DNA of 64,000 nt from Candidatus Woesearchaeota archaeon (GTDB lineage: Archaea > Nanobdellota > Nanobdellia > Woesearchaeales > JAFCFN01). Position numbers and translations under genes: made by a program. The notes below the pieces were generated by a model that ran no database searches, was not told the origin of the DNA, and saw only the letters and a list, made by a program, of their open reading frames with translations. The stretch lies in the NCBI GenBank assembly GCA_017608625.1, contig JAFCFN010000006.1, positions 295 to 64,294 on the forward strand, in the 5' to 3' direction. Numbering within the stretch: position 1 is the stretch's first letter; the number at the start of each line of letters is the position of its first letter. Below, piece by piece: positions 22,068-57,288 of this stretch.

Positions 22068-22472
22068 TTATTTCCTCTTTTTCTTAATTTTTCTTCTCTT
22101 TTTTACTTCTTTTGTTAGTAACTCTATTTTCTTTGGATCTTTTTTAATTGATTTGACAACATTTGCAGGTCCAATAATAGTCAACCCTGTTCTATCTCCT
22201 AGTAATGAATTAATTAAACCTTCCTTAAATCTGCTGAACCAAGGAGTATCTTTACTAATGTTAGGATAGATGACACTTAGTTCAATTCCTTTAAATTCTT
22301 TATTTATTTCTTCCATTGTTGCTTTTATTAATTCTGCTTCTTCCTCTTTTTTTAGCCTTCCTTGTAACAACACTATTTTGTTCTCTTTTGCTATATTAAG
22401 CAATTTTCTTATTCTCCCTACAGATGTCAAATCTGCAATTTCATTATAAGGCACAACTTGTAGAGTTACCAT
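22068..22472 (-). CDS. conserved archaeal protein (DUF2073-like), Lys-rich tail
   Basis: 134 aa; sits between small GTPase and Zn-ribbon gene, as in the conserved archaeal triplet. Confidence 0.4.
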   Translation of the reverse strand: MVTLQVVPYNEIADLTSVGRIRKLLNIAKENKIVLLQGRLKKEEEAELIKATMEEINKEFKGIELSVIYPNISKDTPWFSRFKEGLINSLLGDRTGLTIIGPANVVKSIKKDPKKIELLTKEVKKRRKIKKKRK

Positions 22473-22473
22473 G

Positions 22474-23109: not shown

Positions 23110-23144
23110 TTTACACCCTTATTCCTGAATATTTTAATTATTGT

Positions 23145-23858: not shown

Positions 23859-23933
23859 ACAGATTATAAATTGCTTTTGCTATATAAATCTTTCTATTTA
23901 CAACACCTTGAGGTGGGGCAAATAAGAAATCGA

Positions 23934-25097
23934 TTAAACACTCCTCTTCACAATCAAACTAGTTTTAATGATCTCTTTAGCTTTCTCCAAATCTTTTTTC
24001 TCAACTTTGTTTCTTAACTCTAATCTTGCAGCTGCTTTTGCCAATCTAATTAAACCAATAATCATTCTAGGAGAAACCTCAACTAAGAAATTATTCTCCT
24101 TTTCTTTAAGTTCTTTGCTAAATTCTACAACATCTTTTTGAAAATCTCTTGGAAACTCTACTTTTATTTGTTGAGCATGATCAATATATTCTTTTATGAA
24201 ATTTAAGTCCATCTTATTTACTTTTTTTCTGTCTTGTTCAACAATCTTTTTTGCTATTTCTGAGAATTGAGTTACACCAGGTGTTTTGATTAAGAACACT
24301 AAATGAAACCTTGTTAACAAGGCAGGGTCAAAAGGTATCTGTTTTTTTAGATCCTCAATTCTTACTCCAATGAACTTATCTTTTTTTGGATTAGCAGAAG
24401 CAAGAACATTTACTTTTGCTTCAAATGTATAGTGCTTTCCTCCTTTATTATATGATATAAAACCTTTTTCCATTGCGTTATACAAACTTGCTCTGTCTTC
24501 TTGCTTCATCAGATTTAACTCATCTATTACAGCAATTCCATTATTTGCCATCGGTAATAAACCAGGGATTACATCATTCCCTTTTACTGTAACAGCTAAG
24601 CCTGCTGAGGATGTTCCTGAGCCTAGACCAAATGAAGAGATAGGAGCTAGATCTGTTACTGATTTTATTATATCTGATTTGCCAATCCCTGGATCTCCTA
24701 ATAGTAAGATATGTAGCTGTTCTGCAAATAACTGCAATAACACTGCTTCTTTTACTGTATCTAAACCAGTTATATTTGGTGCAATTAAGTTTAAAATAGT
24801 TGATCTTGCTTTTTTGCTGAAATCCTCAAAAGCCTTTCTTTTATAATGATAATCTATTGTTTTGTTCATTAAATCAACAAAATCAGCAACTCTTTTGTCC
24901 ATAACAGATAACTCAAGAATAGGAAATATCTCATCATAAACAAGGGTTGTGCCTAATCTTGATTGAGAAAAAGATATACTGCCTTCTTTTAGCAGTTTTT
25001 TAACTTTTTTTGCATCTTCTTTATCTAAGATTTCTTTTATTATTTTGAAATTTGCTCTTTTTGTGCCTAACAAAGGCAATAGTTGTTTCCACCCCAT
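23934..25097 (-). CDS. MCM-family AAA+ ATPase lacking canonical N-terminal domain (mini-MCM)
   Basis: Walker A 'LLLGDPGIGKS', Walker B 'IAVIDELNLM', MCM-specific 'YNAMEKGFISYNKGG...VLASANP', Arg finger 'LLTRF'; only 387 aa. Confidence 0.65.
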   Translation of the reverse strand: MGWKQLLPLLGTKRANFKIIKEILDKEDAKKVKKLLKEGSISFSQSRLGTTLVYDEIFPILELSVMDKRVADFVDLMNKTIDYHYKRKAFEDFSKKARSTILNLIAPNITGLDTVKEAVLLQLFAEQLHILLLGDPGIGKSDIIKSVTDLAPISSFGLGSGTSSAGLAVTVKGNDVIPGLLPMANNGIAVIDELNLMKQEDRASLYNAMEKGFISYNKGGKHYTFEAKVNVLASANPKKDKFIGVRIEDLKKQIPFDPALLTRFHLVFLIKTPGVTQFSEIAKKIVEQDRKKVNKMDLNFIKEYIDHAQQIKVEFPRDFQKDVVEFSKELKEKENNFLVEVSPRMIIGLIRLAKAAARLELRNKVEKKDLEKAKEIIKTSLIVKRSV

Positions 25098-25378
25098 ATT
25101 TGCTATTAGAAAGCAGATAAATATAAAGTTTTTGGTGAAAATTTAGTCACTGGTCACTGGACAGGTTTGCGCGTAGGGTATTTAAAGCAGAATAGTTGTT
25201 TTTTTGCTTTGAAAAGCCAAGTTTTGCCTCTTTTTCCTTGGCTTTTTGAGGTGAATAAGATGTACTATGAAAAATTTGATACAGATTATGTAAAGGATTT
25301 GTTTTTGGAGCAGGTTGGGAAGCTGACAACTAGAACAGTTGAGAAACAACTAGTTTTAGAAACATTTATTAATTAAGA

Positions 25379-25406
25379 GCTACACGCGTAATATTATGTG
25401 GGTAGC
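25379..25406. promoter_or_regulatory. imperfect palindrome GCTACACGCGTAATATTATGTGGGTAGC overlapping regulator start codon
   Basis: shares GCGTAATATTA core with perfect palindrome at 26045. Confidence 0.4.
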
Positions 25407-26043
25407 CAAGCTGAGAATTTTTAATGAGAAAAATATTTTAATACAATTGGCAAAGAAGCATGATGTAGTATTGACAGGCTATCCTTTGTCTTATTTTAAG
25501 GAAAAAGGCAAAATTTATTTGTTTGTAACAGGGAATATCTTTGGAGAGGATAAAAACAAAAGACTTTTTCTTCAGGATTTCAAAAAAGATAAAAGAATAA
25601 GAAAAGCAGAAATAAAAAATGATTTTATTATTGCAGAAATGGAGCAACCTTTATTAGTGGAGCCATTCTATGATCCGGAAATTATTCATTTAAAACCTGT
25701 TTTTGTTTCTAATACAGGATATCAGGATTGGGAGATTGCAAGTTGGAGCAGAGATAAATTGGCTAAAGTAGTTGAGGTTTCAAAAAAGATACAAGGAAAG
25801 CTTTTGAAGTTAAAGCAAGAGAAGATTTCTAATATTTCTGTTAGATCTATCTTCCCAGAGCTTACAGCAAAGCAGAAGAAAGCTTTTGAAATAGCTCTGA
25901 AAAATGGCTATTACGAATTTCCAAGAAAAACAGAGCTAAAGGAGTTAGCCAAAATAATGAAAGTTTCTCTTTCTACTTATCAGGCTCATCTAAGAAAGGC
26001 TGAGAAAAAGATTATGACTTTTTCTGCTGGATATCTTAAGTAA
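25396..26043 (+). CDS. DNA-binding protein with C-terminal HTH_10 (Bat-type) domain
   Basis: C-terminal 'KKAFEIALKNGYYEFPRKTELKELAKIMKVSLSTYQAHLRKAEKKI'. Confidence 0.55.
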   Translation: MWVAKLRIFNEKNILIQLAKKHDVVLTGYPLSYFKEKGKIYLFVTGNIFGEDKNKRLFLQDFKKDKRIRKAEIKNDFIIAEMEQPLLVEPFYDPEIIHLKPVFVSNTGYQDWEIASWSRDKLAKVVEVSKKIQGKLLKLKQEKISNISVRSIFPELTAKQKKAFEIALKNGYYEFPRKTELKELAKIMKVSLSTYQAHLRKAEKKIMTFSAGYLK

Positions 26044-26044
26044 A

Positions 26045-26060
26045 GGCGTAATATTACGCC
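26045..26060. promoter_or_regulatory. perfect 16-bp palindrome GGCGTAATATTACGCC directly after regulator stop
   Basis: seen in sequence; terminator and/or operator. Confidence 0.45.
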
Positions 26061-26080
26061 TAAAATTAAAAATATTTGTT

Positions 26081-26563
26081 ATGTTTTACTACGTGATAAT
26101 GACAAATAGAGGTTATAAAATGAAAACAAACTGGAATAATTATGAGTCTGAACTTGAATATATATTAGAAGAAGCACTGCAGAATGTAGGTGTGAAGTTA
26201 AGTGAAGCTAAAATAGATAAAAACCATGATGACTTCAATTATACAAGAATTGCAGAAGCAGGGGATCTTAGGATTGAACATAAAAAATTATTTGATGGTA
26301 GATGTATGTATGAACAATTGGAGTTAGGTAATAAAGAGTATGATGACGGTAAGATTGGTTACATAGTAATGTTTATTAATAACAGTAAGATTGAAGGTAT
26401 ATTTAGTGACGGAGAGGAGGAAAGTGACATATTTAAGGATCAACTTAAAAAGGATTTTATTGAGCAATATCACAGGGCTCCAGAAAACCATGTTGATGCA
26501 GTTATGCTTACAAAATTGGCTGTGAAGAATTTTGCTAAGTATAAGAAAGAGATAGAGAAATGA
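26081..26563 (+). CDS. hypothetical protein (operon gene 1)
   Basis: 160 aa acidic protein; overlaps next ORF by 4 nt. Confidence 0.35.
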   Translation: MFYYVIMTNRGYKMKTNWNNYESELEYILEEALQNVGVKLSEAKIDKNHDDFNYTRIAEAGDLRIEHKKLFDGRCMYEQLELGNKEYDDGKIGYIVMFINNSKIEGIFSDGEEESDIFKDQLKKDFIEQYHRAPENHVDAVMLTKLAVKNFAKYKKEIEK

Positions 26564-27036
26564 AAAAATCACTAAAAGACCTAATACTCGTAGGAGGTTT
26601 GGTTAGTTTACTGAGTGGAACAATTGTAGCTAAAAATGCAACATTGGAGCAGGCAATAAAATATTTTGATCCAGATCAAGAATATGTTGACATATTTTAT
26701 GCTCCAGGAAAACCAAATAAAAAATATCAGTCTTGTGATGAAATTGAATTAAGAATAGGAGATAAAGCATTTATGCTTTATCAAAACCCAAAAACAGGTG
26801 AGATAATCTCAGCATATTTAAGTGAATTTGAACAGTCCTCTGTTCCAGGAATTAAAAAAGCTGAAGGCTGGCTTCCAAAAGATACATTTGTATCAGAAAA
26901 TAAAAAGAAGAAATTTTTAGAGAGGTTTAGTGAAGAAGAACTTAAAAAGGCAAAATATCATTTTTTATCAAGAGAAGAGATGCTAAAGCTAAAGAAACTC
27001 TATGAAAAAGCAAAGAAAAAGATTCTGCTGTGGTAA
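26560..27036 (+). CDS. hypothetical secreted/membrane-anchored protein (operon gene 2)
   Basis: N-terminal hydrophobic segment 'LILVGGLVSLLSGTIVA'. Confidence 0.35.
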   Translation: MKKSLKDLILVGGLVSLLSGTIVAKNATLEQAIKYFDPDQEYVDIFYAPGKPNKKYQSCDEIELRIGDKAFMLYQNPKTGEIISAYLSEFEQSSVPGIKKAEGWLPKDTFVSENKKKKFLERFSEEELKKAKYHFLSREEMLKLKKLYEKAKKKILLW

Positions 27037-27076
27037 ATAAGTAAATATTATAAATATAATTGACTTCTTTATAGTA

Positions 27077-27640
27077 ATGCAACCCAAAATAAAAGAGGAT
27101 CTGCTCTATATTCTGAATGAAGCAATCATTATACTGAAAAGTAAAGAAGAAAGTGATATCTATAAACTAAAAGAGCTTTCTAATCACACTATCCATAATG
27201 CTTCTATTTTTCAAGACCAAGATTCTATTTCAATGGCTGTGATTATTTATTCTGTTTATAAAATTGTGGAAAGGTATGGTTTAACAAGCAGAATTTATGA
27301 AGTAGTTGATGCATACTTAAAAAGAGCAAAAAGATTATTAGACAGAGATGACATAAAAGGATACAGAAAAGCAATCCATGATACATTTAAATATATTTCA
27401 AAGATTGACAAAAGGCTAAAAACATTTATAGAAGAGGTTATAGAAAAAGCAAAGATAACAAAAGGCAGCAAGGTGTTTGAACATGGGATATCTCTAACAA
27501 AAGCTGCTTCTTTGCTAGGAATTTCTGAATGGGACTTAATGAGATATATTGGTAAGACAAATATTATGGATGTGCAATTACCAGCAACAGATGTTAGAAG
27601 AAGATTGATATTTGTAAGGAGGTTATTTGGTTTGAAATGA
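27077..27640 (+). CDS. hypothetical protein with C-terminal HTH-like segment (operon gene 3)
   Basis: 'ISLTKAASLLGISEWDLMRYIG' HTH-like. Confidence 0.35.
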   Translation: MQPKIKEDLLYILNEAIIILKSKEESDIYKLKELSNHTIHNASIFQDQDSISMAVIIYSVYKIVERYGLTSRIYEVVDAYLKRAKRLLDRDDIKGYRKAIHDTFKYISKIDKRLKTFIEEVIEKAKITKGSKVFEHGISLTKAASLLGISEWDLMRYIGKTNIMDVQLPATDVRRRLIFVRRLFGLK

Positions 27641-27987
27641 GCAAATTAAAATTATACGGCATAAGCAAACAAGAGAATAGAGTCCACTTTAGGCTTGGAA
27701 AAAAACAAGCATTTCTTGATGTATTTAGAAAAATTTTGTTAAGATTTGGTTTTTGGGATGCAAGGTATTGGCATTATGACGAAATAAAAGATAAAGATGA
27801 TAAAATAAATAATTTAACTGATTTTTGTGATCATCTTCAGAATGAAAAATATGACATCGATATAATTTTTGGTAAGAAAAGAATCATTGTTATAGTAAGA
27901 GCCAAACAAAAAGACAAAGATAAGTTTATTAAAGAATTAAATAAATTCTGCGAGTGGGCAAAAATTAGGAGAAGATTAAAATGGTGA
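27637..27987 (+). CDS. hypothetical protein (operon gene 4)
   Basis: 116 aa, Trp-rich, overlaps neighbours. Confidence 0.3.
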   Translation: MSKLKLYGISKQENRVHFRLGKKQAFLDVFRKILLRFGFWDARYWHYDEIKDKDDKINNLTDFCDHLQNEKYDIDIIFGKKRIIVIVRAKQKDKDKFIKELNKFCEWAKIRRRLKW

Positions 27988-28673
27988 ACAAGATCTTAAT
28001 CTTTAATACAGGACCGATAATTAGTCTAACAATGAATAATTTGCTTTGGCTATTAAAACCTCTTAAAAGACAATTTCAAGGCAAATTCGTAATTCCAAAA
28101 GCAGTTAAAAGAGAATTGATAGACAAACCATTTAAAATAAAACGTTTCAAATTTGAAGCATTGCAAGTGTTGCATTACATCAATAATAATACTTTAGAAG
28201 TAGTGGATAAAAGAGAAATAACAAAAAAAGCTGAAAAGATTCTAAGTATAGCTAACAAGTGCTTTAGGGCTCATGGTAAGAATATAGAGATAATACACTA
28301 TGCAGAAGCATCAACACTTGCAACTGCTTTGGTTTTGGGAGCAGATGCTTTGTGTGTGGATGAAAGAACAACAAGACTATTAATAGAAGATCCAGCAAGA
28401 TTATCAAAAATCTTAAGTAAAAAATTACATACAAAAATAAAAGTGAACAGTAAAAATCTAAAAGAGATTAAAAAAGAAGTAAAGGGGATTAAATTAATCA
28501 GATCAGCAGAATTAGTTGTAATTGCTTATGAGTTGGGTTTATTGGATAATTATGTAAAACATACATCAATATCAAAAAATGAATTGCTTGATTCAGTTCT
28601 GTGGGGAGTTAAGTTGGATGGCTGTGCTATATCTGAGAAAGAGATAGAACAGATAATCAAGCTAGAGAAATAA
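27981..28673 (+). CDS. PIN-like domain protein with C-terminal extension (operon gene 5)
   Basis: 'KILIFNTGPII' first strand (Asn in place of first Asp), 'KFVIPKAVKRELID', 'ATALVLGADALCVDERT' VapC-like C motif. Confidence 0.45.
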   Translation: MVNKILIFNTGPIISLTMNNLLWLLKPLKRQFQGKFVIPKAVKRELIDKPFKIKRFKFEALQVLHYINNNTLEVVDKREITKKAEKILSIANKCFRAHGKNIEIIHYAEASTLATALVLGADALCVDERTTRLLIEDPARLSKILSKKLHTKIKVNSKNLKEIKKEVKGIKLIRSAELVVIAYELGLLDNYVKHTSISKNELLDSVLWGVKLDGCAISEKEIEQIIKLEK

Positions 28674-28710
28674 AAAGTTTTTTATAGTTGAAAAATTAGA
28701 ATAAGATAAA

Positions 28711-28974
28711 ATGGGTTTATTTGGACCAAGCGTAAAAGCTGTAATTAAGGAAAGCAAAGAATTTTATGCTGAATTAGCAAGAATGCCTTATCAGTTAAGA
28801 CAGATTGAAAGAACAAATTTTGCTCAATATAAAGAAATAAAAACAAAATTGAAACATATGATAAATAAATGTGCAGAGATGTTAAAGAGATTAGCAATAA
28901 AAGAGAGTGAAATTGAAGAATTAACAAAATATTTGAGAATATTTCATAATATATATAAAAGAAATTTTACTTAA
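28711..28974 (+). CDS. hypothetical small protein (operon gene 6)
   Basis: 87 aa helical. Confidence 0.3.
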   Translation: MGLFGPSVKAVIKESKEFYAELARMPYQLRQIERTNFAQYKEIKTKLKHMINKCAEMLKRLAIKESEIEELTKYLRIFHNIYKRNFT

Positions 28975-29657
28975 ATTTCACCTAAAAGCAAATAATTCAT
29001 GCCACCATAAAGTGGGCGGTTAATTTTTACAATATTCTCTTTTATATTCGCTATTTTTAAGTATATATTAATTGCAGTATTTGATTCATGAGAAATAACT
29101 TTACTATTAATAGATTTAGCTTTTCTTATTTTATAAGGCAATCCAAGTTCTCTGATATGTGCTTGTCCGACAATTACTATATTTAACTTTCCATTAAGAT
29201 CTAGACCATTGACTATGTTCTCAAATAATTTATTCTCATTTGCATGTAATCCTTCCTCATAGGAAACATATTTTTTTTCTTCATCATTTCCAATAGGTAT
29301 AGCTTCTCCATTTTTTGATTTGATTGTCTTTAAAATGGGCAATAAATCCTTCATATATTCTTTATCATAAATATCTTTTATTGAAGATAATTTTTGACAT
29401 AATTGTTTTTCATTTAATTGACCTGAAAAATAGGATTTGAATATTGATGATAGTTTATAGTCAAAATGTTCTAAAAAAACTTTGAGAGGTTTTTTATCAG
29501 CCAATGCATCAATTAATTTGAGTTCATTATGTCTATTATATTTGTTCCTGTCAGAATGCAAATCACCTATAAATACTAATTTTTCAGAACTTAGATCTTG
29601 CACCAACCTGTCTAATGAAATTGCTTGCATGCTCTCATTTACAGCATTACCTAGCAT
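28971..29657 (-). CDS. hypothetical protein, possible hydrolase
   Basis: 'LVFIGDLHSD' metal-hydrolase-like motif; convergent with operon. Confidence 0.3.
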   Translation of the reverse strand: MLGNAVNESMQAISLDRLVQDLSSEKLVFIGDLHSDRNKYNRHNELKLIDALADKKPLKVFLEHFDYKLSSIFKSYFSGQLNEKQLCQKLSSIKDIYDKEYMKDLLPILKTIKSKNGEAIPIGNDEEKKYVSYEEGLHANENKLFENIVNGLDLNGKLNIVIVGQAHIRELGLPYKIRKAKSINSKVISHESNTAINIYLKIANIKENIVKINRPLYGGMNYLLLGEI

Positions 29658-29791
29658 TTTGAACCCCTATATACTCAAAAATACTTAACCAATATTTAAA
29701 TTTTTCTGTTATTTATCCACTAAGTAGTAATAAAATTTTATTTAGTAAGCTATTTATATAGTAATTAATTCTTATTATAAGAGAGGGTAAA

Positions 29792-31082
29792 ATGTTGTTT
29801 GCACATCTAGCAGATTGTCATATAGGATCTTGGAGAGATGAAAAACTAAAGCATTTGAATACAGAGGCGTTTCTTAAAGCAACTCAAATGTGCATGGATA
29901 AAAAGGTTGATTTTATTCTTATATCAGGAGACTTGTTTAATACTTCTCTGCCTTCTGTTGATAATCTAAAAACAATTGTTGGAAGATTAAAGGAATTAAA
30001 AGACAATAATATTCCAGTTTATATTATTGCTGGCTCTCATGATTTTTCTCCATCAGGCAAAACAATTCTAGATGTTCTGGAAAAAGCTGATTTAGTAAGG
30101 AATGTATTTCAAGGAGAAGTTGAGGAAGGTAAACTAAAGCTAAAATTCACAATTGATGAAAAAACAGGAGCAAAAATAACAGGAATAATAGGCAAGAAAG
30201 GAATGTTGGACAGAACATATTATGAACAATTAGATAAAACCGATCTAGAAAAAGAAGATGGCTACAAGATTTTTATGTTTCATACTGCTTTGAGTGAATT
30301 CAAACCAAAAAATCTTGAACAAATGGAGTCTGCTCCACTATCATTTTTACCAAAAAACTTTAATTATTATGCAGGAACCAAAAAATCTTGAACAAATGGA
30401 GTCTGCTCCACTATCATTTTTACCAAAAAACTTTAATTATTATGCAGGGGGGCATGTTCATTATATTTTTAATAAAAAAGAACCTAATTATGGTATGATA
30501 GCTTATCCAGGTTCTTTAAGTCCAACTAATTTTAAGGAGCTAGAAGAAGGTACTCATGGTTTTTATTTTGTTGATAATGACAAAATAGAGTTTGAGAACA
30601 TACAAGTTTATAATGTTTTTTCTATAAATATTGATTGTGAGAACAAAACTCCTCAAGAGGTTGAGGAGGAAATCAAAAAGGAAATAGAAGATAAAGAGTT
30701 CATAAATACAATAGTAACCATAAGGTTACAAGGTTGTCTAAAACAAGGAAAGCCTTCTGACATTAACTTTAAAGAAATATTTTCTATGCTTTATGATAAA
30801 TCAGCTTATTTTGTTATGAGAAACACATCTGCTTTAACATCAAAAGAATTTCAGGAAGTTGAGATTAATGTAGAGCCAAGTGAAAATATGGAAGAGGATT
30901 TAATCAAAGAGCATGTTGGACAGGTGCCTCTATTTGGATTAGATAAAGAAAAAGAGACAGAGTTAACAAAAAGATTAATGAGGATACTTCAGCAGGAAAA
31001 ACAAGAAGGAGAAACAAGAGCTGTTTTTGAAGAAAGAATCAAAAAAGATTTAAATATAATATTAAAACAACTAGGGATCTGA
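29792..31082 (+). pseudogene. mre11: Mre11-like DNA repair nuclease, reading frame broken by 73-bp tandem duplication
   Basis: phosphoesterase motifs 'HLADCHIG', 'GDLFN', 'AGSHD', 'GGHVH'; ORFs 29792..30391 and 30294..31082 join if one repeat copy removed. Confidence 0.65.
30303..30448. repeat. perfect 73-bp tandem duplication (2 copies) inside mre11
   Basis: aaccaaaaaatcttgaacaaatggagtctgctccactatcatttttaccaaaaaactttaattattatgcagg x2. Confidence 0.9.
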
Positions 31083-31083
31083 A

Positions 31084-31476
31084 ATGATTGACCTATCAAA
31101 ACTAGAGCAAATATTGAAAGATTCTTGGAGTAAAGAAACTAGCTCTGACCCAGATAATTGGTCACCAGAAAATCCTGCTTGGGGACAATGCGCAGTTACA
31201 TCATTAATTGTTAATGATTGTTTAGGAGGAGAAATTGTTTGGGCTCCAGCCATTCTTCCTAATGGAAAGGAGATATCACACTATTTTAATAAAATAAATG
31301 GAAAAGAAATTGATCTAACAAGGGAACAATTCCCATCTGGAACAAAGATTCCTCTAGGCATTCCGAAATCAAAACAATTTTCAACAACAAGGGAGTATAT
31401 TCTTTCTTATCCTGAAACTCAAAGAAGATATGAAATATTAAAACAAAAGGTCCAAAAGGCTTTAGAACTCACTTAA
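31084..31476 (+). CDS. hypothetical protein
   Basis: 130 aa; not Rad50. Confidence 0.3.
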   Translation: MIDLSKLEQILKDSWSKETSSDPDNWSPENPAWGQCAVTSLIVNDCLGGEIVWAPAILPNGKEISHYFNKINGKEIDLTREQFPSGTKIPLGIPKSKQFSTTREYILSYPETQRRYEILKQKVQKALELT

Positions 31477-32532
31477 TGTCTTAACCTTACTATATCTTAC
31501 AATTGTTGTAGTACCTTCTTTACCACCTGTTATTTTTTCTAAAGAAACAAATCTTCCTTTTTCTAGTTTATCTATCTTTCTCTGGAATGTTTTGTAGCTG
31601 CTTTTGCCACCTTGTTTTTGGTATATTGTAAATAACTCTCCAATTTTTAATCCACTATTTACTTTTATTAAATCAAGCAGTGCATGTAATTCATCATCCA
31701 AATCAGTACTTTTTTTGATTGAGAAATCATCTAATTTTTTGATAGCATTCTGAACATGTTTTATTGTTATCTTTTTGCTGCTTTCATCTTCTGCTAAATT
31801 TCCTGCTTCTCTCATTAAATATAAACCAGACCTTATGTCTTCTAATTCTGCTGTTTTTTTAACAACAAGCTCAAATGCATCATCTTGCCATACACCAGGA
31901 ACAAATGCATACTGCATTCTCTGCTTTAGTATGTCTCTTGTTTCAGCCTCAGAATATGGTCTAAAATGCAGGGTTTCTGCAATTAATCTTGATTTTAATC
32001 TTGAATCTAAGTTAAAAATCCAGTCTTTGTGATTTGTTATCATAAGAATTGTTTTTCTGTAGATTTCTTCCAAGATAGAATAAAGAAAATCTAAGTCCTC
32101 TGCTTTGTCTATTTCATCAAAACAGAAAACAACTGATTTCTTGTTTAATTGCTCTTTTATTACCTTAAAAAGCTCGTTTGATTTTTTGTTTTGGGTAAAT
32201 CTATACTCAAGCTGATCGCATAACTCAAGCATTATTTTATATGTAGTATTTTTTTGCCAACAATTGACATAAATTGGAATTACTGAATCTGTTTTTTCTT
32301 CTAATTCCTGAAAAATATGTTTGCATGCAACTGTTTTTCCAACTCCTGATGAGCCATAAATCAATAAATTTTTGCCATTTCTTTTTGAGAACAAAGGTTT
32401 TATACAGCTGGCAATATAATGCTGTTCATTTTCTCTATGAGGAATTAATTTAGGGATATAATCATAATCTAGTGCAACAGTGTCTCTAAAAAGACTTTCC
32501 TCAGAACCTAGCATGTTGTCAAATATTCCCAT
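31462..32532 (-). CDS. cdc6: Orc1/Cdc6 replication initiator
   Basis: 'LLIYGSSGVGKT' Walker A, 'VFCFDEID' Walker B, C-terminal winged helix. Confidence 0.85.
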   Translation of the reverse strand: MGIFDNMLGSEESLFRDTVALDYDYIPKLIPHRENEQHYIASCIKPLFSKRNGKNLLIYGSSGVGKTVACKHIFQELEEKTDSVIPIYVNCWQKNTTYKIMLELCDQLEYRFTQNKKSNELFKVIKEQLNKKSVVFCFDEIDKAEDLDFLYSILEEIYRKTILMITNHKDWIFNLDSRLKSRLIAETLHFRPYSEAETRDILKQRMQYAFVPGVWQDDAFELVVKKTAELEDIRSGLYLMREAGNLAEDESSKKITIKHVQNAIKKLDDFSIKKSTDLDDELHALLDLIKVNSGLKIGELFTIYQKQGGKSSYKTFQRKIDKLEKGRFVSLEKITGGKEGTTTIVRYSKVKTLSEF

Positions 32533-32562
32533 AGTCCACTTTAATTTAGAACAAGGCTTTAT

Positions 32563-33849
32563 TTAAACCTTTCTACAAATCTTCTTTAAACCATTCATAT
32601 AGGGTTGTAAAACAGCAGGAATTTTTATTGAGCCGTCTTTTTGTTGATAATTTTCTAAAATAGCTAACATTGCTCTTGAAGTAGCTAGTGCTGTATTATT
32701 CAAAGTGTGAACAAAGCCTTTTGCAGGAAGGCCTTCTTTTTCTCTATACTTAATGTTTAATCTTCTTGCTTGATAATCAGTGCAATTAGAATTAGATCCA
32801 ATCTCTCTATATTTGCCATCTGCCATATAAACCTCTACATCATATTGTTTTGCAGCTCTTTTGCCTACTTCTGCAGAACACATCTCAACAACTCTATATG
32901 GCAGTTTTAGAGCTTTGTAAATATCTTCACAATTTTTTTGCAATTCTTCAAAATATTTCCAGCTGTCTTCTGGTCTGCAGAAAATGAACTGTTCAACTTT
33001 ATTGAATTGGTGCATTCTAAAGAGTCCTTTTGTATATTTACCATGAGAGCCAACTTCTTTTCTAAAACAAGGTGAGAAAGCAACAATCTTTAACGGCAGA
33101 TCTGCTTCATTAAATGTTTCATTCATAAACATTGCTGCAATAGGATGTTCTGCTGTTGCTATTAAGTAAAGATCCTCCCCATCTATTTTGTACATTACCT
33201 CTTCAAAATCCTCTAAAGAAGTGGCGCCTTCGTAGGCTTTTTTGTTCATCATAAAAGGAGGCTCTATTAATCTGTAACCTCTCTTCATAAGAAAATCAAT
33301 TGCAAACCTCTGTAAAGCATGATCTAATAAGGCTAATTCATCTCTCAAATAAACAAAACCTGATCCAGCAACTTTAGCTGCCTTCTGCCTATCAATTAAC
33401 CCTAAATTTTCTGCTAATTCTAGATGATCCTTTGGCTTGAATTTGAACTCAGGTATTTTGCCATCTTTGTATATCACTTTATTATCTGATTCTGATTTGC
33501 CCAAAGGCACGCTTTTATCCAGAATATTTGGAAAGCTTAACAAATAGAATCTGATTTTCTCTTTTAGAAGATTTATCCTTTCTTCTGCTTCTTTGATTTT
33601 TATGGGGAGGTCTTTTGCTTCCTTGATTTTAGCTTTAATATCTTTGCCTTGTTTTTTTAGCTTATTTATCTCCAGTGCAATTATATTTCTTTTGTGTCTT
33701 AAATCTTGAAGCTTTTGTAATAATGCTCTGTATTCTTTGTCTTTTTTAAGAAGATCATCTACCCAGCTTAGTTTTTCTTTTTCCCCTCTTTTTTTGAGGC
33801 TCTCCTTAACTATCCTAGGACTCTGCCTCACCAGGTTGATATCAAGCAT
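32563..33849 (-). CDS. serS: seryl-tRNA synthetase
   Basis: class II motifs; N-terminal coiled-coil arm; start moved to 'MLDINLVRQ'. Confidence 0.85.
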   Translation of the reverse strand: MLDINLVRQSPRIVKESLKKRGEKEKLSWVDDLLKKDKEYRALLQKLQDLRHKRNIIALEINKLKKQGKDIKAKIKEAKDLPIKIKEAEERINLLKEKIRFYLLSFPNILDKSVPLGKSESDNKVIYKDGKIPEFKFKPKDHLELAENLGLIDRQKAAKVAGSGFVYLRDELALLDHALQRFAIDFLMKRGYRLIEPPFMMNKKAYEGATSLEDFEEVMYKIDGEDLYLIATAEHPIAAMFMNETFNEADLPLKIVAFSPCFRKEVGSHGKYTKGLFRMHQFNKVEQFIFCRPEDSWKYFEELQKNCEDIYKALKLPYRVVEMCSAEVGKRAAKQYDVEVYMADGKYREIGSNSNCTDYQARRLNIKYREKEGLPAKGFVHTLNNTALATSRAMLAILENYQQKDGSIKIPAVLQPYMNGLKKICRKV

Positions 33850-38313: not shown

Positions 38314-39747
38314 ATGGCAGAAAATATTGAGTTAAAAAAAATTTCTGATGTAATTTGGGAAATACCTAAAACAGGCAATATGAATGTCCCTACAAGAATT
38401 TTTGCTTCTGAAAAATTATTAGAAAAGATGAAGCTGGATAGAACTTTAGAACAAGGGAGAAATGTTGCTTGTTTGCCAGGAATTTACAAACATGCTATTA
38501 TTTTGCCAGATGGTCATGAGGGATATGGATTTCCTATTGGAGGAGTTGCTGCACTAGATTATGAAAAAGGAGGAATATCTCCAGGCGGTATTGGTTATGA
38601 TATTAATTGTGGTATGAGACTATTAAGAACTAATCTTAAAAAAGAGGATATTTATCCCAGGATTAAAGAACTGTTAGAGAGCTTGTTTCAGCATGTTCCT
38701 GCAGGATTAGGTAGCTCAAATATCAGAGTTACAAAAGATGTATTGCTTGGTGTTCTTAATAAAGGAGCTAAATGGGCTGTTGAAAATGGTTATGGTAATG
38801 AGGATGATCTAGAATTTTGTGAGGAAAATGGGAGTATGTCAACTGCTGATGCATCAGCTGTTTCTGAAAAAGCCAAAAGCAGAGGACTTAAACAGCTTGC
38901 TACTCTTGGTAGTGGAAACCATTTTCTTGAGGTTCAGTATGTTGATAAAATATTTGATAAAGAAGTAGCAAAGGTTTTTGGAATAAAAGAGGAAGGACAA
39001 GTAACTTTAATGATCCATTGTGGAAGCAGAGGCTTAGGACATCAGGTTTGCTCAGATTATTTAAGAGAAATGGAAAGAAGATTGCCTGAAATTGTTGCTA
39101 AAATACCTGACAAAGAGCTAATTTATGCGCCTTCTGGGCATGAACTTTGTGAAAAATATCTAAAAGCAATGTCAGCTGCTGCTAATTTTGCATGGTGCAA
39201 TAGACATATTATTGGTCATCAGTGTAGACTAGCTTTTTCAAATATTTTTTCTGATGTAAAACTTGAAACTGTTTATGATGTTGCTCATAATATTGCAAAA
39301 ATAGAAGAACATAAGATAGATGGAGAAGTTAAAAAAGTGTTTATGCATAGAAAAGGAGGAACAAGGGCATTTGGTCCTGGAGGAAAAGAAATTCCTGAAA
39401 AATATAGAGATGTTGGCCAGCCGATTATTATTCCTGGCTCTATGGGAACTGCCTCTTATGTTTTAGTTGGTACAAAAGAAGGAATGGAGATCAGTTTTGG
39501 TAGTACAGCTCATGGTGCTGGAAGAACAATGTCAAGACATCAAGCACTAAAGCAATACAGAGGAGAGAAATTAAAAAGAGAATTAGAGGAAAGAAAAATT
39601 TTTGTTAGATCTGCTTCTTGGAAAGGTATTGCAGAAGAAGCTCCTGGTGCTTATAAGGATATTGAAGAGGTTGTTGATGTAAGCCATAAAGCAAATATTG
39701 GTAAAAAGGTAGTTAGATTAAAGCCAATAGGTGTTATTAAAGGATGA
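38314..39747 (+). CDS. rtcB: RNA-splicing ligase RtcB
   Basis: 'GYDINCGMRLL', 'GSGNHFLEVQ', 'HCGSRGLGHQ', 'AHGAGR' motifs. Confidence 0.9.
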   Translation: MAENIELKKISDVIWEIPKTGNMNVPTRIFASEKLLEKMKLDRTLEQGRNVACLPGIYKHAIILPDGHEGYGFPIGGVAALDYEKGGISPGGIGYDINCGMRLLRTNLKKEDIYPRIKELLESLFQHVPAGLGSSNIRVTKDVLLGVLNKGAKWAVENGYGNEDDLEFCEENGSMSTADASAVSEKAKSRGLKQLATLGSGNHFLEVQYVDKIFDKEVAKVFGIKEEGQVTLMIHCGSRGLGHQVCSDYLREMERRLPEIVAKIPDKELIYAPSGHELCEKYLKAMSAAANFAWCNRHIIGHQCRLAFSNIFSDVKLETVYDVAHNIAKIEEHKIDGEVKKVFMHRKGGTRAFGPGGKEIPEKYRDVGQPIIIPGSMGTASYVLVGTKEGMEISFGSTAHGAGRTMSRHQALKQYRGEKLKRELEERKIFVRSASWKGIAEEAPGAYKDIEEVVDVSHKANIGKKVVRLKPIGVIKG

Positions 39748-40157
39748 AACCTTATGAATTTTTAGAGCATACAGCTGATGCAAAATTTAGAGCTTATGGC
39801 AAAACTTTAGAGGAAGCATTTCAGAATGCAGCTTATGCTATGACAGATGTTATAACTGATCATACAAAAATCAAGCCTGTTATAGAGAAAACAATTTCTG
39901 TAGAATCAGAAAATAAAGAAGCATTGCTTTATGATTTTTTAGAGCAGTTTCTTATTCTGCTTGACAGCGAGGGTTTTATATTGAACAAAATAGAGGAGGT
40001 AAAGATGCAAAATAATAAAATTACAGCAAAAATTATTGGGGACAACCATCCAGAAGAATATAATATAGAAACTCACATTAAAGCAGTTACTTATGAAGAG
40101 ATGTTTATTAAAAAAGAAAAAGATCAGTGGATTGTGCAGGTTATTGTTGATATTTAG
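39744..40157 (+). CDS. archease
   Basis: 'YEFLEHTADAKFRAYGKTLEEAF' archease N-terminus; overlaps rtcB stop. Confidence 0.8.
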   Translation: MKPYEFLEHTADAKFRAYGKTLEEAFQNAAYAMTDVITDHTKIKPVIEKTISVESENKEALLYDFLEQFLILLDSEGFILNKIEEVKMQNNKITAKIIGDNHPEEYNIETHIKAVTYEEMFIKKEKDQWIVQVIVDI

Positions 40158-43100
40158 ATCTTTAAGCTCACAACTTTACTAATGCCATGGTCTGTCATAC
40201 TGATTCCATAAAGAGAATCAGCTTCTGATATAACTGCATCATTATGGCTTATTAAGATGTATTGAGCTTTTTGGCAGTATTTTCTTATCAATAATGCAAA
40301 TTTTTCTGAGTTGTGTTTATCAAGAGCTGCATCCACTTCATCCAAAATATAGAATGAAGCTGGCTGATATTCTTGTATAGCAAATATAAAAGCAAGTGTT
40401 GTAAGTGTTTTTTCTCCTCCTGACAGGCTTCTTAAATCAATATATTTATTAGAAGTAATTTTAACTTTGATTGTCATTCCTCCTTCAAATGGATTTTGAG
40501 GATTTTCTAGTTGCAAGTATGCATTTCCTTTTTTTGTTAGTGTTGAGAATATTCTCTGGAAATTTTCATTTACTGCGTTGAAAGTCTGCATAAATAAACC
40601 AGATTTCTTTTTCTCAAGTTCCTCCATCATTTTGAGAATATCTTGTTTTTCTTTTTCTATTTTCTCTTTCTTTTCAAGTAATGCATCATACTCTTTAACA
40701 ACCGCGTCATATATTTCTAGTGACTTTAAGTTAACAGAGCCTAGCTGTTCTTTTAATTTTTCAAATTTTGTTATCTCCCTTTTTAACTCATCTTCTGATT
40801 TATTTGTTATTAGTCTTACTCCTTTGTATTGCTCGAAATCCTGCTCAAGTCCTGCTAACTCAGCATTAATCTTTGCCAAATCTAATGAAATGAGATTGTT
40901 TTTGCTTTCTATTTTCCTCATTTCTTCTAATATTGAATCTGTCTTAATCTCGTTCTTTTGTATTATTTCATTTTCTTTTGTTCTTTTATTGAATAATTCC
41001 TTAAATTTAGAATAAAACATTGCTGCTTTTTTCTCTTTTTCAGCAAGCTGTTTGTTCTCATTTGAGATTTTTTTATTTAACTGAGAAATCTCTTCTTCAA
41101 ATTCTTGTTTATATTTTTCATTTTGTTTGATGATTTTTTCTGTATTTAATTTCTCAGCCAGAAGCATGTCATTTATTTGTATGTCAATATTCTTTATTTC
41201 AGCATCCATTTTTATTATCTCCTCTGTTATTGTTGTTTTCTGCTGTTCAAAAGTATTTAACTCAGCCAATAATGCAGGATCTCTTAGTTGAGCAATTTGG
41301 TTTCTTAACTCCTGTTTTTTTATTTTTAGATTTGCTAACTCTTTGTTTTGTTCAAGAATTCTTTCTTTTATTTTCTCAAATTCTTTATCTACATCATTAA
41401 GCTTACTTTTTAGTCTTTGTTTTTCTTGAGTAGAAGCTTCTATGTCAGCACTATCAAGATGCAAGCTTTTTTCTGTTTTGATTATTTCTCCCTCTAAGTT
41501 AGCCTTTTTTTGCCTTAATTCATTTATTTTTTGTTCATTCTCTAGTTTTCTCTTTTCTAATGTATCAATTAGTTTTTGAATTTGACTTATTTTTGATCTT
41601 TGTTGTTCTAATTCTTTGAGTGTATCTTGTTCTTTAAAACCAGATGCTTTTATTTTTCTAAAACCACCATGCATCACTCCTGATATCTCTGCTACATCTC
41701 CATCTAAAGTAACATATTTTGCTTTGTTTATTCCTAGTTTTCTCGCTGTTTCAATATTTTTTACAATAATTGTATTTGCAAACACATAAGAAAATGCTTT
41801 TTTGAATTTTGGATCAAAGCTTACTAAATCAAGAGCCAAGCCATAAACTGAGTTGGTTTTTTTGGCTAAATTCTTAATATTTTGAGGAGTTTCTTTTGCC
41901 TGTATTTTGTTTAAAGGGATAAATGTTGCTGTTCCTAGTTTGTTCTTTTTTAAGTAATTTATGCACTGGTTTGCTGTTTTGTCATCCTCTACTATAATGC
42001 TGTTTAATCTTTGTCCAGCTGCTACTGATAAAGCTGTGCTGAACTGAGAGTCTACTTTTCCTAAGCTGGAGAGTGTTCCATATATGCCTTTTATTCCTGA
42101 TTTTAGCAATGCTCTTATAGGGGCAGGTCCTAAAGATGTTTGCTCTGCTGTCATTGCTCTTGCTTCTAATTTAGCTAGGACCTCATTTAATTTTAGAAGT
42201 TGTTTTCTATTATTAACAAGCTGTAAAGCTAAAGAAGAATCTTCATTTAATAGCTTATTCAGTTCTGAAGTAAGTTCTTTGAATAATTGCTTTTTCTTTT
42301 TTAGCTCATTTAACTGGCTAGAGTGCTCTTTTTCAATTAGTTTCACTTTTGCTATTTTTGAATCAATGCTGTTTATTTCAAATTCTAGTTTATCTTTCTC
42401 TCTTAAGAGATTCTGCTGTTGTTCTATTAGAGAATTAACGTATTTTTGTTTTTCTTCTATTTTCTTATCTAAGTTTTCAACCTCAGCTTCAATAGTAGAT
42501 GTTGCATCAAGCTTATTGTCTGCTTTAAATTTAGCTAGCTTGTTTTCAAGCTCTTTCTTTTGCTTTAGTTTCTTGTTTTTATCTTTAATTAATTCTGCTT
42601 TTTGAGAATTCAGATTTTCGATTTTTTCATCTATTTCTTTTAAGCTTAATTTAAGTTGCTCTTTTCTTTGTTCAATTTTTGCTATCTCGTTTTTGCAAGA
42701 ATTTAATCTTGTTTTCGCAGATGCAATACTTACTTTAAGATTCTCTATTTCTTTTCTGAGGTTAAGCTGTTCTACTTCTCCTTTTTCCTCTATTTCTTTT
42801 GTTATACTATCAATTATTTCCTTTCTTTTTGCTATATCTTCTTTTAACTTGTTTATTTGCGACTGCTGCTTATTTATTAATTCCTTATTTTTGTTTAATT
42901 TTGCTTGCAGTTCATTTTTTGATTTTAGTCTTTTTTGAATTTGTAAATTCAGGTAAGAAGCTCTATTTTGTGTGATTGCATCACTCATCTCTTTATATTT
43001 TAATGCTTGGTCCCTGTCTTTTTTCAATTCTTTAAGATATGTTTTTCTTTCTGTTAAAATGATTTCTGCTTCTTTTAATTTAGCATCTGTTTTTTCTAAT

Positions 43101-43642
43101 TCATGTAAGGCTTTTTGTTTTTTTTCTTCATAAACTGCTATATCTGAGATTTCTTCTAAAATCATTCTTTTTTGCAAAGGAGATAGTTCAACAAATTTTG
43201 TAACATCTCCTTGCAGAACAATATTATGACCATCAGGGTCAATCCTTGCTAGTGCTAATAAGTCTAAAACTTGTTGTCTTGTTCTTACTTTGTCGTTTAT
43301 TTTATATGTGCTTTGTCCATTTTGTTTCACTATTCTTGTTATTTTAACTACATCATCATCTGTTGGAAATATTTTTTGGCTATTGTCAAAGAAGATAGAT
43401 ACTTCTGCTTTTTTTGCTGGCTCTTTATGCTTGCCTCCATTGTATATTAAACCAGAACCTTTCTCTGCTCTTAGACTTTTTGTTGAGCTTTTACCCAGAA
43501 CAAAGCATATAGCATCTCCTATGTTGGATTTTCCTGATCCATTTGGTCCTAGGATGCAGTTAAATCCTCTGTCAAATATCAATTCAGTGTGGTTGGCAAA
43601 GGATTTAAAACCATGCATCACTATTTTCTTAATGTAAGTCAT
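40154..43642 (-). CDS. smc: chromosome segregation protein SMC
   Basis: 1162 aa; N-terminal 'GPNGSGKSN' Walker A, coiled coils, central hinge, C-terminal 'LSGGEKTLTTLAF' signature and 'ILDEVDAALD' Walker B. Confidence 0.85.
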   Translation of the reverse strand: MTYIKKIVMHGFKSFANHTELIFDRGFNCILGPNGSGKSNIGDAICFVLGKSSTKSLRAEKGSGLIYNGGKHKEPAKKAEVSIFFDNSQKIFPTDDDVVKITRIVKQNGQSTYKINDKVRTRQQVLDLLALARIDPDGHNIVLQGDVTKFVELSPLQKRMILEEISDIAVYEEKKQKALHELEKTDAKLKEAEIILTERKTYLKELKKDRDQALKYKEMSDAITQNRASYLNLQIQKRLKSKNELQAKLNKNKELINKQQSQINKLKEDIAKRKEIIDSITKEIEEKGEVEQLNLRKEIENLKVSIASAKTRLNSCKNEIAKIEQRKEQLKLSLKEIDEKIENLNSQKAELIKDKNKKLKQKKELENKLAKFKADNKLDATSTIEAEVENLDKKIEEKQKYVNSLIEQQQNLLREKDKLEFEINSIDSKIAKVKLIEKEHSSQLNELKKKKQLFKELTSELNKLLNEDSSLALQLVNNRKQLLKLNEVLAKLEARAMTAEQTSLGPAPIRALLKSGIKGIYGTLSSLGKVDSQFSTALSVAAGQRLNSIIVEDDKTANQCINYLKKNKLGTATFIPLNKIQAKETPQNIKNLAKKTNSVYGLALDLVSFDPKFKKAFSYVFANTIIVKNIETARKLGINKAKYVTLDGDVAEISGVMHGGFRKIKASGFKEQDTLKELEQQRSKISQIQKLIDTLEKRKLENEQKINELRQKKANLEGEIIKTEKSLHLDSADIEASTQEKQRLKSKLNDVDKEFEKIKERILEQNKELANLKIKKQELRNQIAQLRDPALLAELNTFEQQKTTITEEIIKMDAEIKNIDIQINDMLLAEKLNTEKIIKQNEKYKQEFEEEISQLNKKISNENKQLAEKEKKAAMFYSKFKELFNKRTKENEIIQKNEIKTDSILEEMRKIESKNNLISLDLAKINAELAGLEQDFEQYKGVRLITNKSEDELKREITKFEKLKEQLGSVNLKSLEIYDAVVKEYDALLEKKEKIEKEKQDILKMMEELEKKKSGLFMQTFNAVNENFQRIFSTLTKKGNAYLQLENPQNPFEGGMTIKVKITSNKYIDLRSLSGGEKTLTTLAFIFAIQEYQPASFYILDEVDAALDKHNSEKFALLIRKYCQKAQYILISHNDAVISEADSLYGISMTDHGISKVVSLKI

Positions 43643-43723
43643 AACCGTAGCCAGTTAACGTCTAAGGGAGATGCGCTCGCAACAGAGTTGCTCGTTTAGT
43701 CCCCCTGGTTAACCTTTACCTCC
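43643..43723 (-). ncRNA. GC-rich structured element between GGAGG and smc ATG (copy 2, ~80 nt)
   Basis: shares 27-nt 3' segment and flanking GTTAAC with copy 1; GGGGGA/UCUCCC stem enclosing GCAAC-UCU-GUUGC hairpin. Confidence 0.5.
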
Positions 43724-43896
43724 ATTTCTTTTAGTCTGTCCATAAGTGTTAAAGAAGCATTTAGTGTGTTTATTTCATTTATATCTATTTTGTATTTTCC
43801 ATAATCTAGTCTAGCTTTACACCTAGGGCATACTTTTGGCAGTTTTTCATCCCTTGTCAGCCAACTATACTGGCATTTTTTACATTTTATTAACAT
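43696..43896 (-). CDS. Zn-ribbon small protein; C-terminal codons read from the GC-rich element
   Basis: 'CKKCQY...CPRCKARL'; last 9 codons (MEVKVNQGD) lie in element copy 2. Confidence 0.35.
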   Translation of the reverse strand: MLIKCKKCQYSWLTRDEKLPKVCPRCKARLDYGKYKIDINEINTLNASLTLMDRLKEMEVKVNQGD

Positions 43897-48736: not shown

Positions 48737-48825
48737 ATTGAATGTGAAAATAGTTTTATTTAAATAGTTTATCAGAATTGTTAAACGAAATGTTTAAAAA
48801 AACTCTAAGAATATCTATATTTTAA

Positions 48826-49024
48826 GCCGCCGTGGCACAACCTGGTATCACTAAATGTGACAGGAAACTGCGCGGGATTGCTATGAGAAATTGTCTATTC
48901 TCACTAAGATCCCGTTCCCTTCGGGGTATCTGGGTTCAAAAAAGTGAAGTGTAGACAGAGGGGCAGTTACTACAGAGCTGCTTGCTTTGTTTACATCCGG
49001 CTTTTGAAAGTCCCAGCGGCGGCG
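48826..49024 (+). tRNA. tRNA-Ser(GCU)-like, probably three introns (D-loop ~17 nt, anticodon loop ~25 nt, T-loop ~70 nt)
   Basis: acceptor GCCGCCG/CGGCGGC+G; anticodon stem CGGGA/TCCCG with loop TTGCTA[intron]A; variable hairpin TCCC-TTCG-GGGG; T arm CTGGG-TTCAAA[intron]T-CCCAG; exon sum ~87 nt. Confidence 0.5.
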
Positions 49025-49070
49025 TTTATTTTAGTAACTTTTATAAACAATCTTTAATCTAATTCTATTT

Positions 49071-49145
49071 AGCGGGGTGGGGCAGTCTGGAGTGCCCGGA
49101 GGGCCCATAACCCTCAGGTCAGAGGTTCAAATCCTCTCCCCGCTA
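49071..49145 (+). tRNA. initiator tRNA-Met(CAU)
   Basis: AGCGGGG-TG-GGGC-AGTCTGGAGT-GCCC-G-GAGGG-CCCATAA-CCCTC-AGGTC-AGAGG-TTCAAAT-CCTCT-CCCCGCT-A; A1:U72 and three G-C pairs in anticodon stem. Confidence 0.85.
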
Positions 49146-49160
49146 TTTTCCAAAAAAAAG

Positions 49161-57089: not shown

Positions 57090-57232
57090 CTCTTTTTATT
57101 GTTTATGAATATAATATAGGTTTAAAATAGTAATGCTATTTATAAATGTTTTGGTTAATATAAAGATAAAATCAGTTCTGCAAGAGTGATAAAATATCAG
57201 AAAGCTTTATAAAAATAAAAAGTGTAAAATTA

Positions 57233-57288
57233 TACAGGAGGGGGCTGTGAGCAAACAATATACAGGAGGGGGCTGTGAGCAAACAATA
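57233..57288. repeat. perfect 28-bp tandem duplication (tacaggagggggctgtgagcaaacaata x2)
   Basis: seen in sequence; overlaps predicted start of downstream ORF. Confidence 0.9.

Follow-up and report, generated by a model that had tools for sequence, protein, structure and literature searches.

A candidate mobile hairpin element at operon start codons of Woesearchaeota-like archaea

On the minus strand of the 64,000-nucleotide stretch of Candidatus Woesearchaeota DNA analysed here (the window), the smc gene follows a short Zn-ribbon open reading frame (ORF), and a relic ATG (43725-43723) is separated from the smc ATG (43642-43640) by 80 nt. The best named relatives of this SMC come from Candidatus Woesearchaeota and Nanoarchaeota MAGs. 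A preliminary description had listed for the segment a GGAGG motif, a stem, a GCAAC-UCU-GUUGC hairpin, a 3' tail and the smc ATG, and all of these are present on the minus strand. The insert core has a GC content of 51%, compared with 31% for the window, and its sequence is identical across three independent assemblies (L060-L062), so that the segment, hereafter copy A, is no assembly artefact. Its parts and neighbours are as follows.

43723-43725, minus strand: first ATG, a relic or duplicated start codon at the left insert edge, which today encodes a Met inside the lengthened Zn-ribbon ORF
43718-43723, minus strand: GGAGGT, a Shine-Dalgarno (SD)-like sequence at the 5' end of the element
43708-43714, minus strand: GGTTAAC, 5' strand of the long-range helix P1, predicted to pair with 43659-43653
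43665-43706, minus strand: variable centre, with a predicted helix P2 (AGGGGGA/TCTCCCT) capped by GCAAC-TCT-GTTGC
43698-43696, minus strand: Zn-ribbon stop TAA, inside the variable centre
43643-43664, minus strand: conserved 3' module TAGAC-GTTAACT-GGCTACGGTT, holding the P1 3' strand GTTAACT (43659-43653)
43642-43657, minus strand: predicted alternative local hairpin P3, TAACTG-GCTA-CGGTTA, the last A being the A of the smc ATG
40154-43642, minus strand: smc gene, with its true start at the second ATG (43642-43640), giving MTYIKKIVMHGFKSF
43696-43896, minus strand: Zn-ribbon ORF, 66 aa, weak DUF5817 match, its last 8-9 codons from the element

The 5' end of copy A reads CTAAAAGAA-ATG and then GAGGTAAA, so GGAGGT spans 43723-43718. 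In the centre, a C precedes AGGGGGA (43706-43700), whose partner TCTCCCT lies at 43671-43665, and the capping hairpin (43691-43679) stands in the context CTAAACGA-GCAAC-TCT-GTTGC-GAGCGCA. Orthologues of smc begin MT(K/R)INK.VM.GF, which matches a start at the second ATG, and an in-frame TAA 15 nt upstream of that codon makes an N-terminal extension impossible. The Zn-ribbon ORF reads through the first ATG and ends ...KEMEVKVNQGD at the TAA within copy A. Some SMC homologues are about 1700 aa long and contain inteins (P0086 and P0114).

The closest smc loci retrieved, L004 and L005, encode SMC proteins 80% and 77% identical to that of the window and lack the element. Each has a single ATG at the Zn-ribbon/smc junction, where the filled site has two, and the end of the Zn-ribbon ORF overlaps the smc ATG in both (AAA GAA TGA in L004 and AGA TAA TG in L005). 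Since the orthologous Zn-ribbon proteins end at ...MDRLKKE and ...IEKLR, whereas that of the window runs on with MEVKVNQGD, the latter residues derive from the element, as had been proposed. The accompanying proposal of an insertion into a pre-existing gene end is supported by the same empty sites, in which the Zn-ribbon stop lies on the smc ATG. In GTDB genomes, 44 smc genes of more distant Woesearchaeota also lack the element and have ordinary TATA boxes 25-35 nt upstream. Insertion exactly at the smc start codon postdates the split from the nearest sampled relatives; it placed the old ATG at the left edge and a new one at the right, destroyed the ancestral overlap of the Zn-ribbon stop with the smc start and added 8-9 codons to the Zn-ribbon ORF. 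A RtcB intein occurs in L004 (15262-18129; 955 aa, with Intein_splicing and LAGLIDADG matches), and none is present in RtcB of the window (38314-39747) or of L005 (476-477 aa).

The window holds a second copy of the element and, at another operon junction, an unoccupied site that is filled elsewhere.

21934-22068, minus strand: copy B, 129 nt between two ATGs at the oapB/oapC junction, with the same ends as copy A and an extra hairpin
3462-3475, minus strand: empty pac2 target site, where the nop10 stop overlaps the pac2 ATG (CTATTATGAGTATG); filled in L003

Copy A is thus the shorter of the two in the window, as first described (80 nt against 129 nt at 22068-21934). In copy B, the first ATG overlaps the stop of oapB (PF09846) as TAATG, the right edge is the ATG of oapC (PF09845), and a 39-codon ORF runs from the first ATG to a TAA that precedes the oapC ATG by 12 nt; the 39-aa product had no relative among 1.84 billion proteins. 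Copies A and B lie 21.7 kb apart, both at housekeeping gene junctions. A 24-mer at the 3' end of the element occurs twice in the window (the second time at 21957-21934), a count reached by 0 of 100 dinucleotide shuffles. A third copy, C, was found on a 1.2-kb metagenome contig (L003) directly 5' of pac2, a PAC2-family gene, and abuts the start codon although the search pattern that found it did not require an ATG. The recurrence of the 24-mer and the third copy before a third unrelated gene uphold the earlier view that this is a repeated module and not a chance likeness, although the module may be merely tolerated and not, as that description had it, functional. The claim that two unrelated genes share an identical 27-nt leader needs correction in one respect: the repeat is real, but the 27-mers of copies A and B are identical at 25 of 27 positions, with two differences that are both C/T.

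Vacant counterparts were likewise found for the other two copies. The oapB/oapC junction is empty in L058 and L059, where ...GAGGAAATAA runs directly into ATGCCC. The pac2 site is filled only in L003 and is empty in the window, L066, L067 and L068; the PAC2 proteins of the window and L003 are 85% identical. The ancestral state at the three filled operon sites was, on this comparison, a stop/start overlap or abutment. Counting against this reading, the pre-insertion sequence reconstructed for copy A has the Zn-ribbon ORF fused to smc, barring a later 1-nt change. A-run differences at the left flank of the smc and oapC sites blur the insertion boundary. Taken together, we consider a lineage-specific insertion of a repeat family to be very probable.

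Other inserts occupy junctions of the oap operon. In L056, the oapB/oapC junction carries a different 82-nt insert (9917-10000) that is rich in GCGAAGC-type mini-hairpins, has an ATG on both sides, contains a 27-codon ORF from the old ATG to a TAA abutting the new ATG, and has GGAGGG 11 nt before the new ATG. This insert was considered as a family member, gave a marginal alignment to copy B (z = 2.4) and was treated as different or decayed. Between oapA and oapB, L058 (1103-1186) carries an AT-rich insert of 84 nt that contains a perfect 13-bp hairpin and is flanked by GAT(T)AAAA direct repeats; this junction is uninterrupted in L059 and the window (22472-22474), and the L058 insert represents another small operon-junction insertion element. 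It was the one extra lead from an automated comparison of intergenic gaps at syntenic loci, which was noisy owing to antisense ORFs. In the window, the oapA-oapB-oapC operon adjoins a short MCM-like gene (23934-25097), and an Orc1/Cdc6-like gene (31462-32532) lies some 6 kb past it, so that the region of about 21500-32600 is probably a replication-origin neighbourhood. Between these two genes, a perfect 73-nt tandem duplication in coding DNA (30303-30448), where ORFs 29792-30391 and 30294-31082 overlap, could mark a gene split by duplication or an assembly artefact.

Copies A, B and C follow a common plan: ATG, a GGAGG/GGGGG-type SD motif, an A-rich linker, RGTTAAC, a structured centre, AGAC, GTTAACY, GGCTACGGTT and ATG, with 80-129 nt between the two ATGs. 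The SD position is occupied by GGAGGAGG in copy B and GGGGGT in copy C. Over the last 27 nt, identity is 25/27 for A and B, 25/27 for A and C, and 23/27 for B and C, and AGACGTTAACYGGCTACGGTTATG is the same in all three save a single C/T at Y. Aligning the copies, as the preliminary description had advised, gave near-identical ends and unalignable centres (z = 0.3-1.0). All three are in sense orientation, each at the start codon of an unrelated gene (smc, oapC and pac2), and ATG...ATG flanks every insert, including the different element at the oapC site of L056. No further copies were found in the roughly 84 kb of the source genome available (the window, L063 and L064; the genome is incomplete) or in 1.08 Mb of related loci searched with up to 7 mismatches and for GTTAAC pairs. 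Pattern scans gave no match in GTDB genomes, one in metagenomes (copy C) and none in viral contigs, and the three known copies, a very small sample, are the whole basis of the family definition and of the start-codon rule. On this evidence, the 80-nt segment is probably a copy of a low-copy, non-coding insertion element family of Woesearchaeota-like DPANN archaea.

Three helices were predicted for the element. P1 is a 7-bp long-range pairing of RGTTAAC with GTTAACY that is possible in all three copies. P2 is a 6-8-bp helix predicted in each copy, unrelated in sequence between copies and bearing variable hairpin caps, that ends 0-1 nt before AGAC in every copy. P3 (UAACYG-GCUA-CGGUUA) forms within the invariant 3' module and excludes P1. 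The P1 and P3 states have predicted energies of -28.2 and -27.2 kcal/mol in copy A, -64.1 and -58.2 in copy B, and -23.8 and -25.1 in copy C, which makes copy A nearly isoenergetic and favours P1 in copy B and P3 in copy C; with DNA energy parameters, P3 is favoured in all three. Relative to shuffled sequences, copy A folds no better (z = -0.55), copy B better (z about -5) and copy C marginally so (z = -2.2). GTTAAC is itself palindromic, so P1 could equally be a direct repeat instead of a selected helix, and its single variable pair (G.U, G-C or A-U) is weak evidence for a helix, with a chance of about 40% of pairing at random.

We compared the element with established classes of RNA and DNA features. 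Rfam gave no match at gathering score, with only noise among the copies at E<=10, ARAGORN found no tRNA in the element, and BLAST found no similarity in plasmid and phage collections. Inspection by eye revealed no C/D-box, H/ACA or K-turn motif conserved among the copies. For a bulge-helix-bulge intron, the predicted junctions have the wrong geometry (1 nt opposite 4-5 nt), and removal would join the Zn-ribbon ORF and smc in frame; for a tRNA-like minihelix, the junction asymmetry is the wrong way round. Similarity to the ORB boxes of replication origins is slight, and the G-string is missing from copy C. The number of GTTAAC sites (13, with about 22 expected) is unremarkable for a restriction-avoidance signal. 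An 8-bp complementarity of the tail GGCUACGGUU to the 5' strand of helix 45 in the generic archaeal 16S sequence was dropped, as that strand is itself part of a stable rRNA helix. An internal promoter is unlikely, since the GC-rich segment of the element contains no TATA-like sequence, whereas genuine TATA boxes occur elsewhere in the window.

Several other GC-rich, repeated or unusual stretches were recorded. A region of about 200 nt (48823-49025, plus strand; up to 70% GC in 50-nt windows) with complementary ends GCCGCCGTGG...CCAGCGGCGGC lies just upstream of tRNA-Met (49070-49146), gave no Rfam match at E<=1 and is a candidate structured RNA; a similar stretch adjoins a tRNA in L039 (7815-7855). 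A GC-rich stretch (up to 65% GC) at 9441-9510 on the plus strand, between UDG and ParA/Fer4 genes, is annotated elsewhere as a 40-aa ORF whose stop and start codons overlap. L004 carries a 104-nt GC-rich near-perfect palindrome, CCAGCCAGTCATGGCGGCTGACG...CGTCAGCGCCATGGCTGG (7116-7219), upstream of the gene for ribosomal protein S3Ae; the equivalent position in the window has no such palindrome. The mini-hairpin GCGAAGC, with its GAA loop, is over-represented (5 against 1.4 expected in the window; 7 against 1.1 in L020) and recurs in intergenic hairpins such as ATTGCGAAGCAAT, with sites at 20865, 21973, 34004 and 46712 of the window, in L020 and in L064 (7374-7563). A 28-nt unit, AAAATTATACAGGAGGGGGCTGTGAGCA, occurs twice in tandem at 57226-57281 with 93% identity. 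Two over-long tRNAs on the minus strand (16697-16786 and 17994-18078), a 90-nt tRNA-Gly and one to which ARAGORN assigned the 4-nt anticodon 'tgta', probably contain introns.

The combination of conserved ends with a free centre, which also marks attC sites, REP sequences and IS200/IS605 ends, suggests a non-autonomous mobile element in which a recombinase preserves the ends. Such an element would move as DNA, probably through a recombinase that recognises hairpins. The recombinase may target or duplicate ATG, or the element may end in an ATG of its own; flanks of the form ATG...ATG would arise from duplication of a 3-bp target as well as from an ATG-ending element that lands behind an ATG. 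If landing were random among tolerated ATGs and in either orientation, finding 3 of 3 copies in sense at a start codon would be unlikely, with a probability of roughly 1-2% by a crude estimate. Persistence would be expected only where the downstream gene survives the insertion. No transposase or integrase was found in about 84 kb of the source genome or in the annotated flanks of relatives.

Coupling by termination and reinitiation is reportedly lost in H. volcanii and E. coli once the spacing exceeds about 30 nt (PMC12548453), so a spacer of 80-129 nt should abolish it. Insertion may be tolerated since the element carries its own SD. With P1 formed, the variable hairpins would be looped out and the SD would stand some 11-14 nt (plus the end of the helix) ahead of the rebuilt ATG. 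For genes inside operons of the window, the GGAGGT SD lies 5-13 nt upstream of the ATG, which puts the proposed effective distance at the long end of the range of this genome. The 3' module has no SD of its own, and use of the SD of the element with P1 formed would be the simplest way for smc expression to continue. In copy B and the L056 insert, the open frame from the old ATG could instead relay ribosomes by termination and reinitiation. Competition between P1 and P3 could further make initiation depend on structure or on upstream translation. We regard this SD-bridging or relay mechanism, which is a model built on predicted folds, as tentative and slightly less probable than its absence. 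A mechanism akin to programmed bypassing, in which ribosomes that start at the old ATG slide to the identical codon at the new start, is very unlikely.

These considerations lead us to favour a mobile hairpin element that lands at operon start codons and is probably tolerated through its own SD and a regenerated ATG, a reading to which we assign a probability of roughly 0.6. A bolder version, in which an undescribed class of archaeal mobile DNA homes to start codons, especially at operon stop/start overlaps, and acts as a portable, structure-bridged and possibly bistable (P1/P3) initiation cassette, seems to us rather doubtful.

The insertion might also be purely selfish and neutral for translation, with GGAGG and the helices serving only DNA-level mobility through recognition of single-stranded hairpins, and with smc translated by ribosomes that melt or scan through the element or by inefficient SD-independent initiation. 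The preference of DNA parameters for the local 3' hairpin P3 in all copies would fit this, as would the unremarkable RNA fold of copy A; conserved ends around a free centre are the pattern of recombinase-recognised sites, and relatives carry other unrelated small inserts at gene junctions. The SD-like motif nevertheless occupies the same place in sense orientation in all three copies, and smc, oapC and pac2 are conserved housekeeping genes that have lost stop/start coupling of a kind reported to fail beyond 30 nt (PMC12548453). We therefore view a translation-neutral insertion as unlikely.

The P1/P3 alternatives bear on another possibility, that of a domesticated riboregulator, a bistable leader that sets or switches translation of smc, oapC and pac2, with temperature, a protein or upstream ORF translation as the cue. 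Two mutually exclusive helices in the 3' module, near-equal in copy A (-28.2 against -27.2 kcal/mol), would suit such a switch, and the 24-nt 3' module is kept across loci and species with one C/T difference, where neutral DNA should have drifted. The orthologous genes of close relatives manage without the element, however, the P1/P3 balance varies widely between copies, and the unconserved centre offers no evident ligand pocket. A riboregulator is in our judgement quite improbable.

Reports of integrons and attC sites in Archaea, Nanoarchaeota among them (PMC9668308), give some standing to a third alternative, in which the element is an attC-like folded recombination site of the integron type, as a singleton or an ORF-less cassette. 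The likeness extends to the outer inverted repeats (7 bp, with AAC at the end of one and GTT at the start of the other), an AGAC spacer that stays unpaired, a second helix, a variable terminal structure, a comparable length and conserved ends around an unrelated centre. Set against the attC boxes RYYYAAC/GTTRRRY, GGTTAAC and GTTAACY each agree at 6 of 7 positions; the element also has a second helix, a spacer on the 3' side and one of 1-13 nt on the 5' side. The deviation of GTTAACY from GTTRRRY, the asymmetric spacers, ten conserved nucleotides reaching beyond the putative R' site, and ATG...ATG boundaries that do not match a crossover between G and TT all count against it, as do the location of copies 21.7 kb apart at housekeeping junctions, with no cassette arrays and no integrase in annotated flanks. 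We give this alternative only a slim chance. Finally, a vertically inherited smc 5' leader or promoter, or chance similarity, is scarcely credible, even though the element sits immediately before the start codon: the preliminary description had weighed its repeat against an ordinary conserved smc leader in relatives, and we found the opposite, with empty sites in L004, L005 and the 44 other loci, TATA boxes of their own in distant relatives, no TATA-like sequence in the GC-rich segment, and 0 of 100 shuffles reaching two matches.

A family of archaeal elements that insert exactly at start codons would demonstrate that mobile DNA is tolerated in essential operons even by extremely compact DPANN genomes, and by what means. 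It would also provide a natural experiment in archaeal initiation with a stable hairpin between SD and start and with stop/start coupling broken. Start-codon homing, if true, would mean that spread of the element rewires translational coupling of essential genes in reduced DPANN genomes. For annotation, the element is a warning, as it adds spurious codons to an upstream ORF and its kind of GC-rich island mimics RNA genes. To our knowledge, small repeats that bring translation start signals with them are uncommon and have so far come from bacteria alone, and the archaeal start-codon element is apparently undescribed.

Among known mobile elements, a classical MITE would have terminal inverted repeats, and the outer ends of the archaeal element (GAGG... 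and ...GGCTACGGTT) are not complementary; the one inverted repeat it has, GGTTAAC/GTTAACY, is internal and set back 5-13 nt from either boundary. The ATG...ATG flanks of all inserts resemble a target-site duplication, but a terminal ATG belonging to the element could explain the same, and no related autonomous IS with the same ends was found in pattern scans of genome, metagenome and viral collections or in the annotated flanks, the source genome being incomplete. With attC sites and IS200/IS605-derived elements, it shares conserved ends, a free structured centre, asymmetric termini that are not inverted repeats and, probably, recognition as a folded single strand. It differs from them in having one clear terminal hairpin, no cassette arrays, and no integrase or Y1 transposase in the DNA examined. 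Measured against IS200/IS605, it shows a hairpin at the right end (P3) and a constant ATG on the left flank, and no convincing left-end hairpin.

Short GC-rich hairpin inserts also spread in AT-rich compact genomes as the GC clusters and 'byp' elements of yeast mitochondria, which have short direct-repeat flanks and insert in spacers or coding sequence, some of them being bypassed by ribosomes; the archaeal element, by contrast, lies at start codons and needs no bypass. Hairpin-split ribosome-binding sites, in which a stable hairpin joins a distant SD to the start, are known from cases such as phage T4 gene 38. These are fixed features of single genes, whereas the archaeal element is a mobile repeat for which bridging is only predicted.

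In behaviour, the closest analogues are Neisseria REP2 and Borrelia IR, with mycobacterial MIRU also close. REP2 and the Borrelia IR-A and IR-B are intergenic repeats of about 120-180 bp with internal stem-loops and no terminal inverted repeats (TIRs) (Delihas 2011, PMC3184786), and they carry a ribosome-binding site (RBS) and an ATG, lie immediately upstream of unrelated ORFs and are fused to them at the start codon (PMC3184786). The archaeal element likewise lies 5' of three unrelated ORFs, with a GGAGG motif, an ATG at its 3' edge, hairpins and no TIRs. REP2 and IR are bacterial, however, and, compared by description, have no sequence relation to it; their copy number is far higher; and REP2 has a promoter and an RBS adjoining the ATG, whereas the archaeal element has no evident promoter and places its SD at the far 5' end, beyond the hairpins. 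What sets it further apart is that its filled and empty sites show recent, exact insertion at start codons.

MIRU are GC-rich units of 40-100 bp inside operons, between a stop and the next start (Supply 1997, summarised in PMC3184786), with filled/empty-site evidence, short flanking direct repeats, transcription in the polycistron and a small ORF linking the genes (PMC3184786). The archaeal element shares the operon-internal position between stop and start and the filled/empty polymorphism, and the relay ORFs of copy B and of the different L056 insert are comparable to the linking ORF of MIRU. A MIRU ORF spans the unit and overlaps both neighbours, whereas that of copy B ends 12 nt before the ATG and copies A and C have none; the archaeal family also has no tandem units, and its ends differ from those of MIRU. 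On these comparisons, the element at smc is best seen as a variant of the small repeat carrying translation signals that stands outside any named family.
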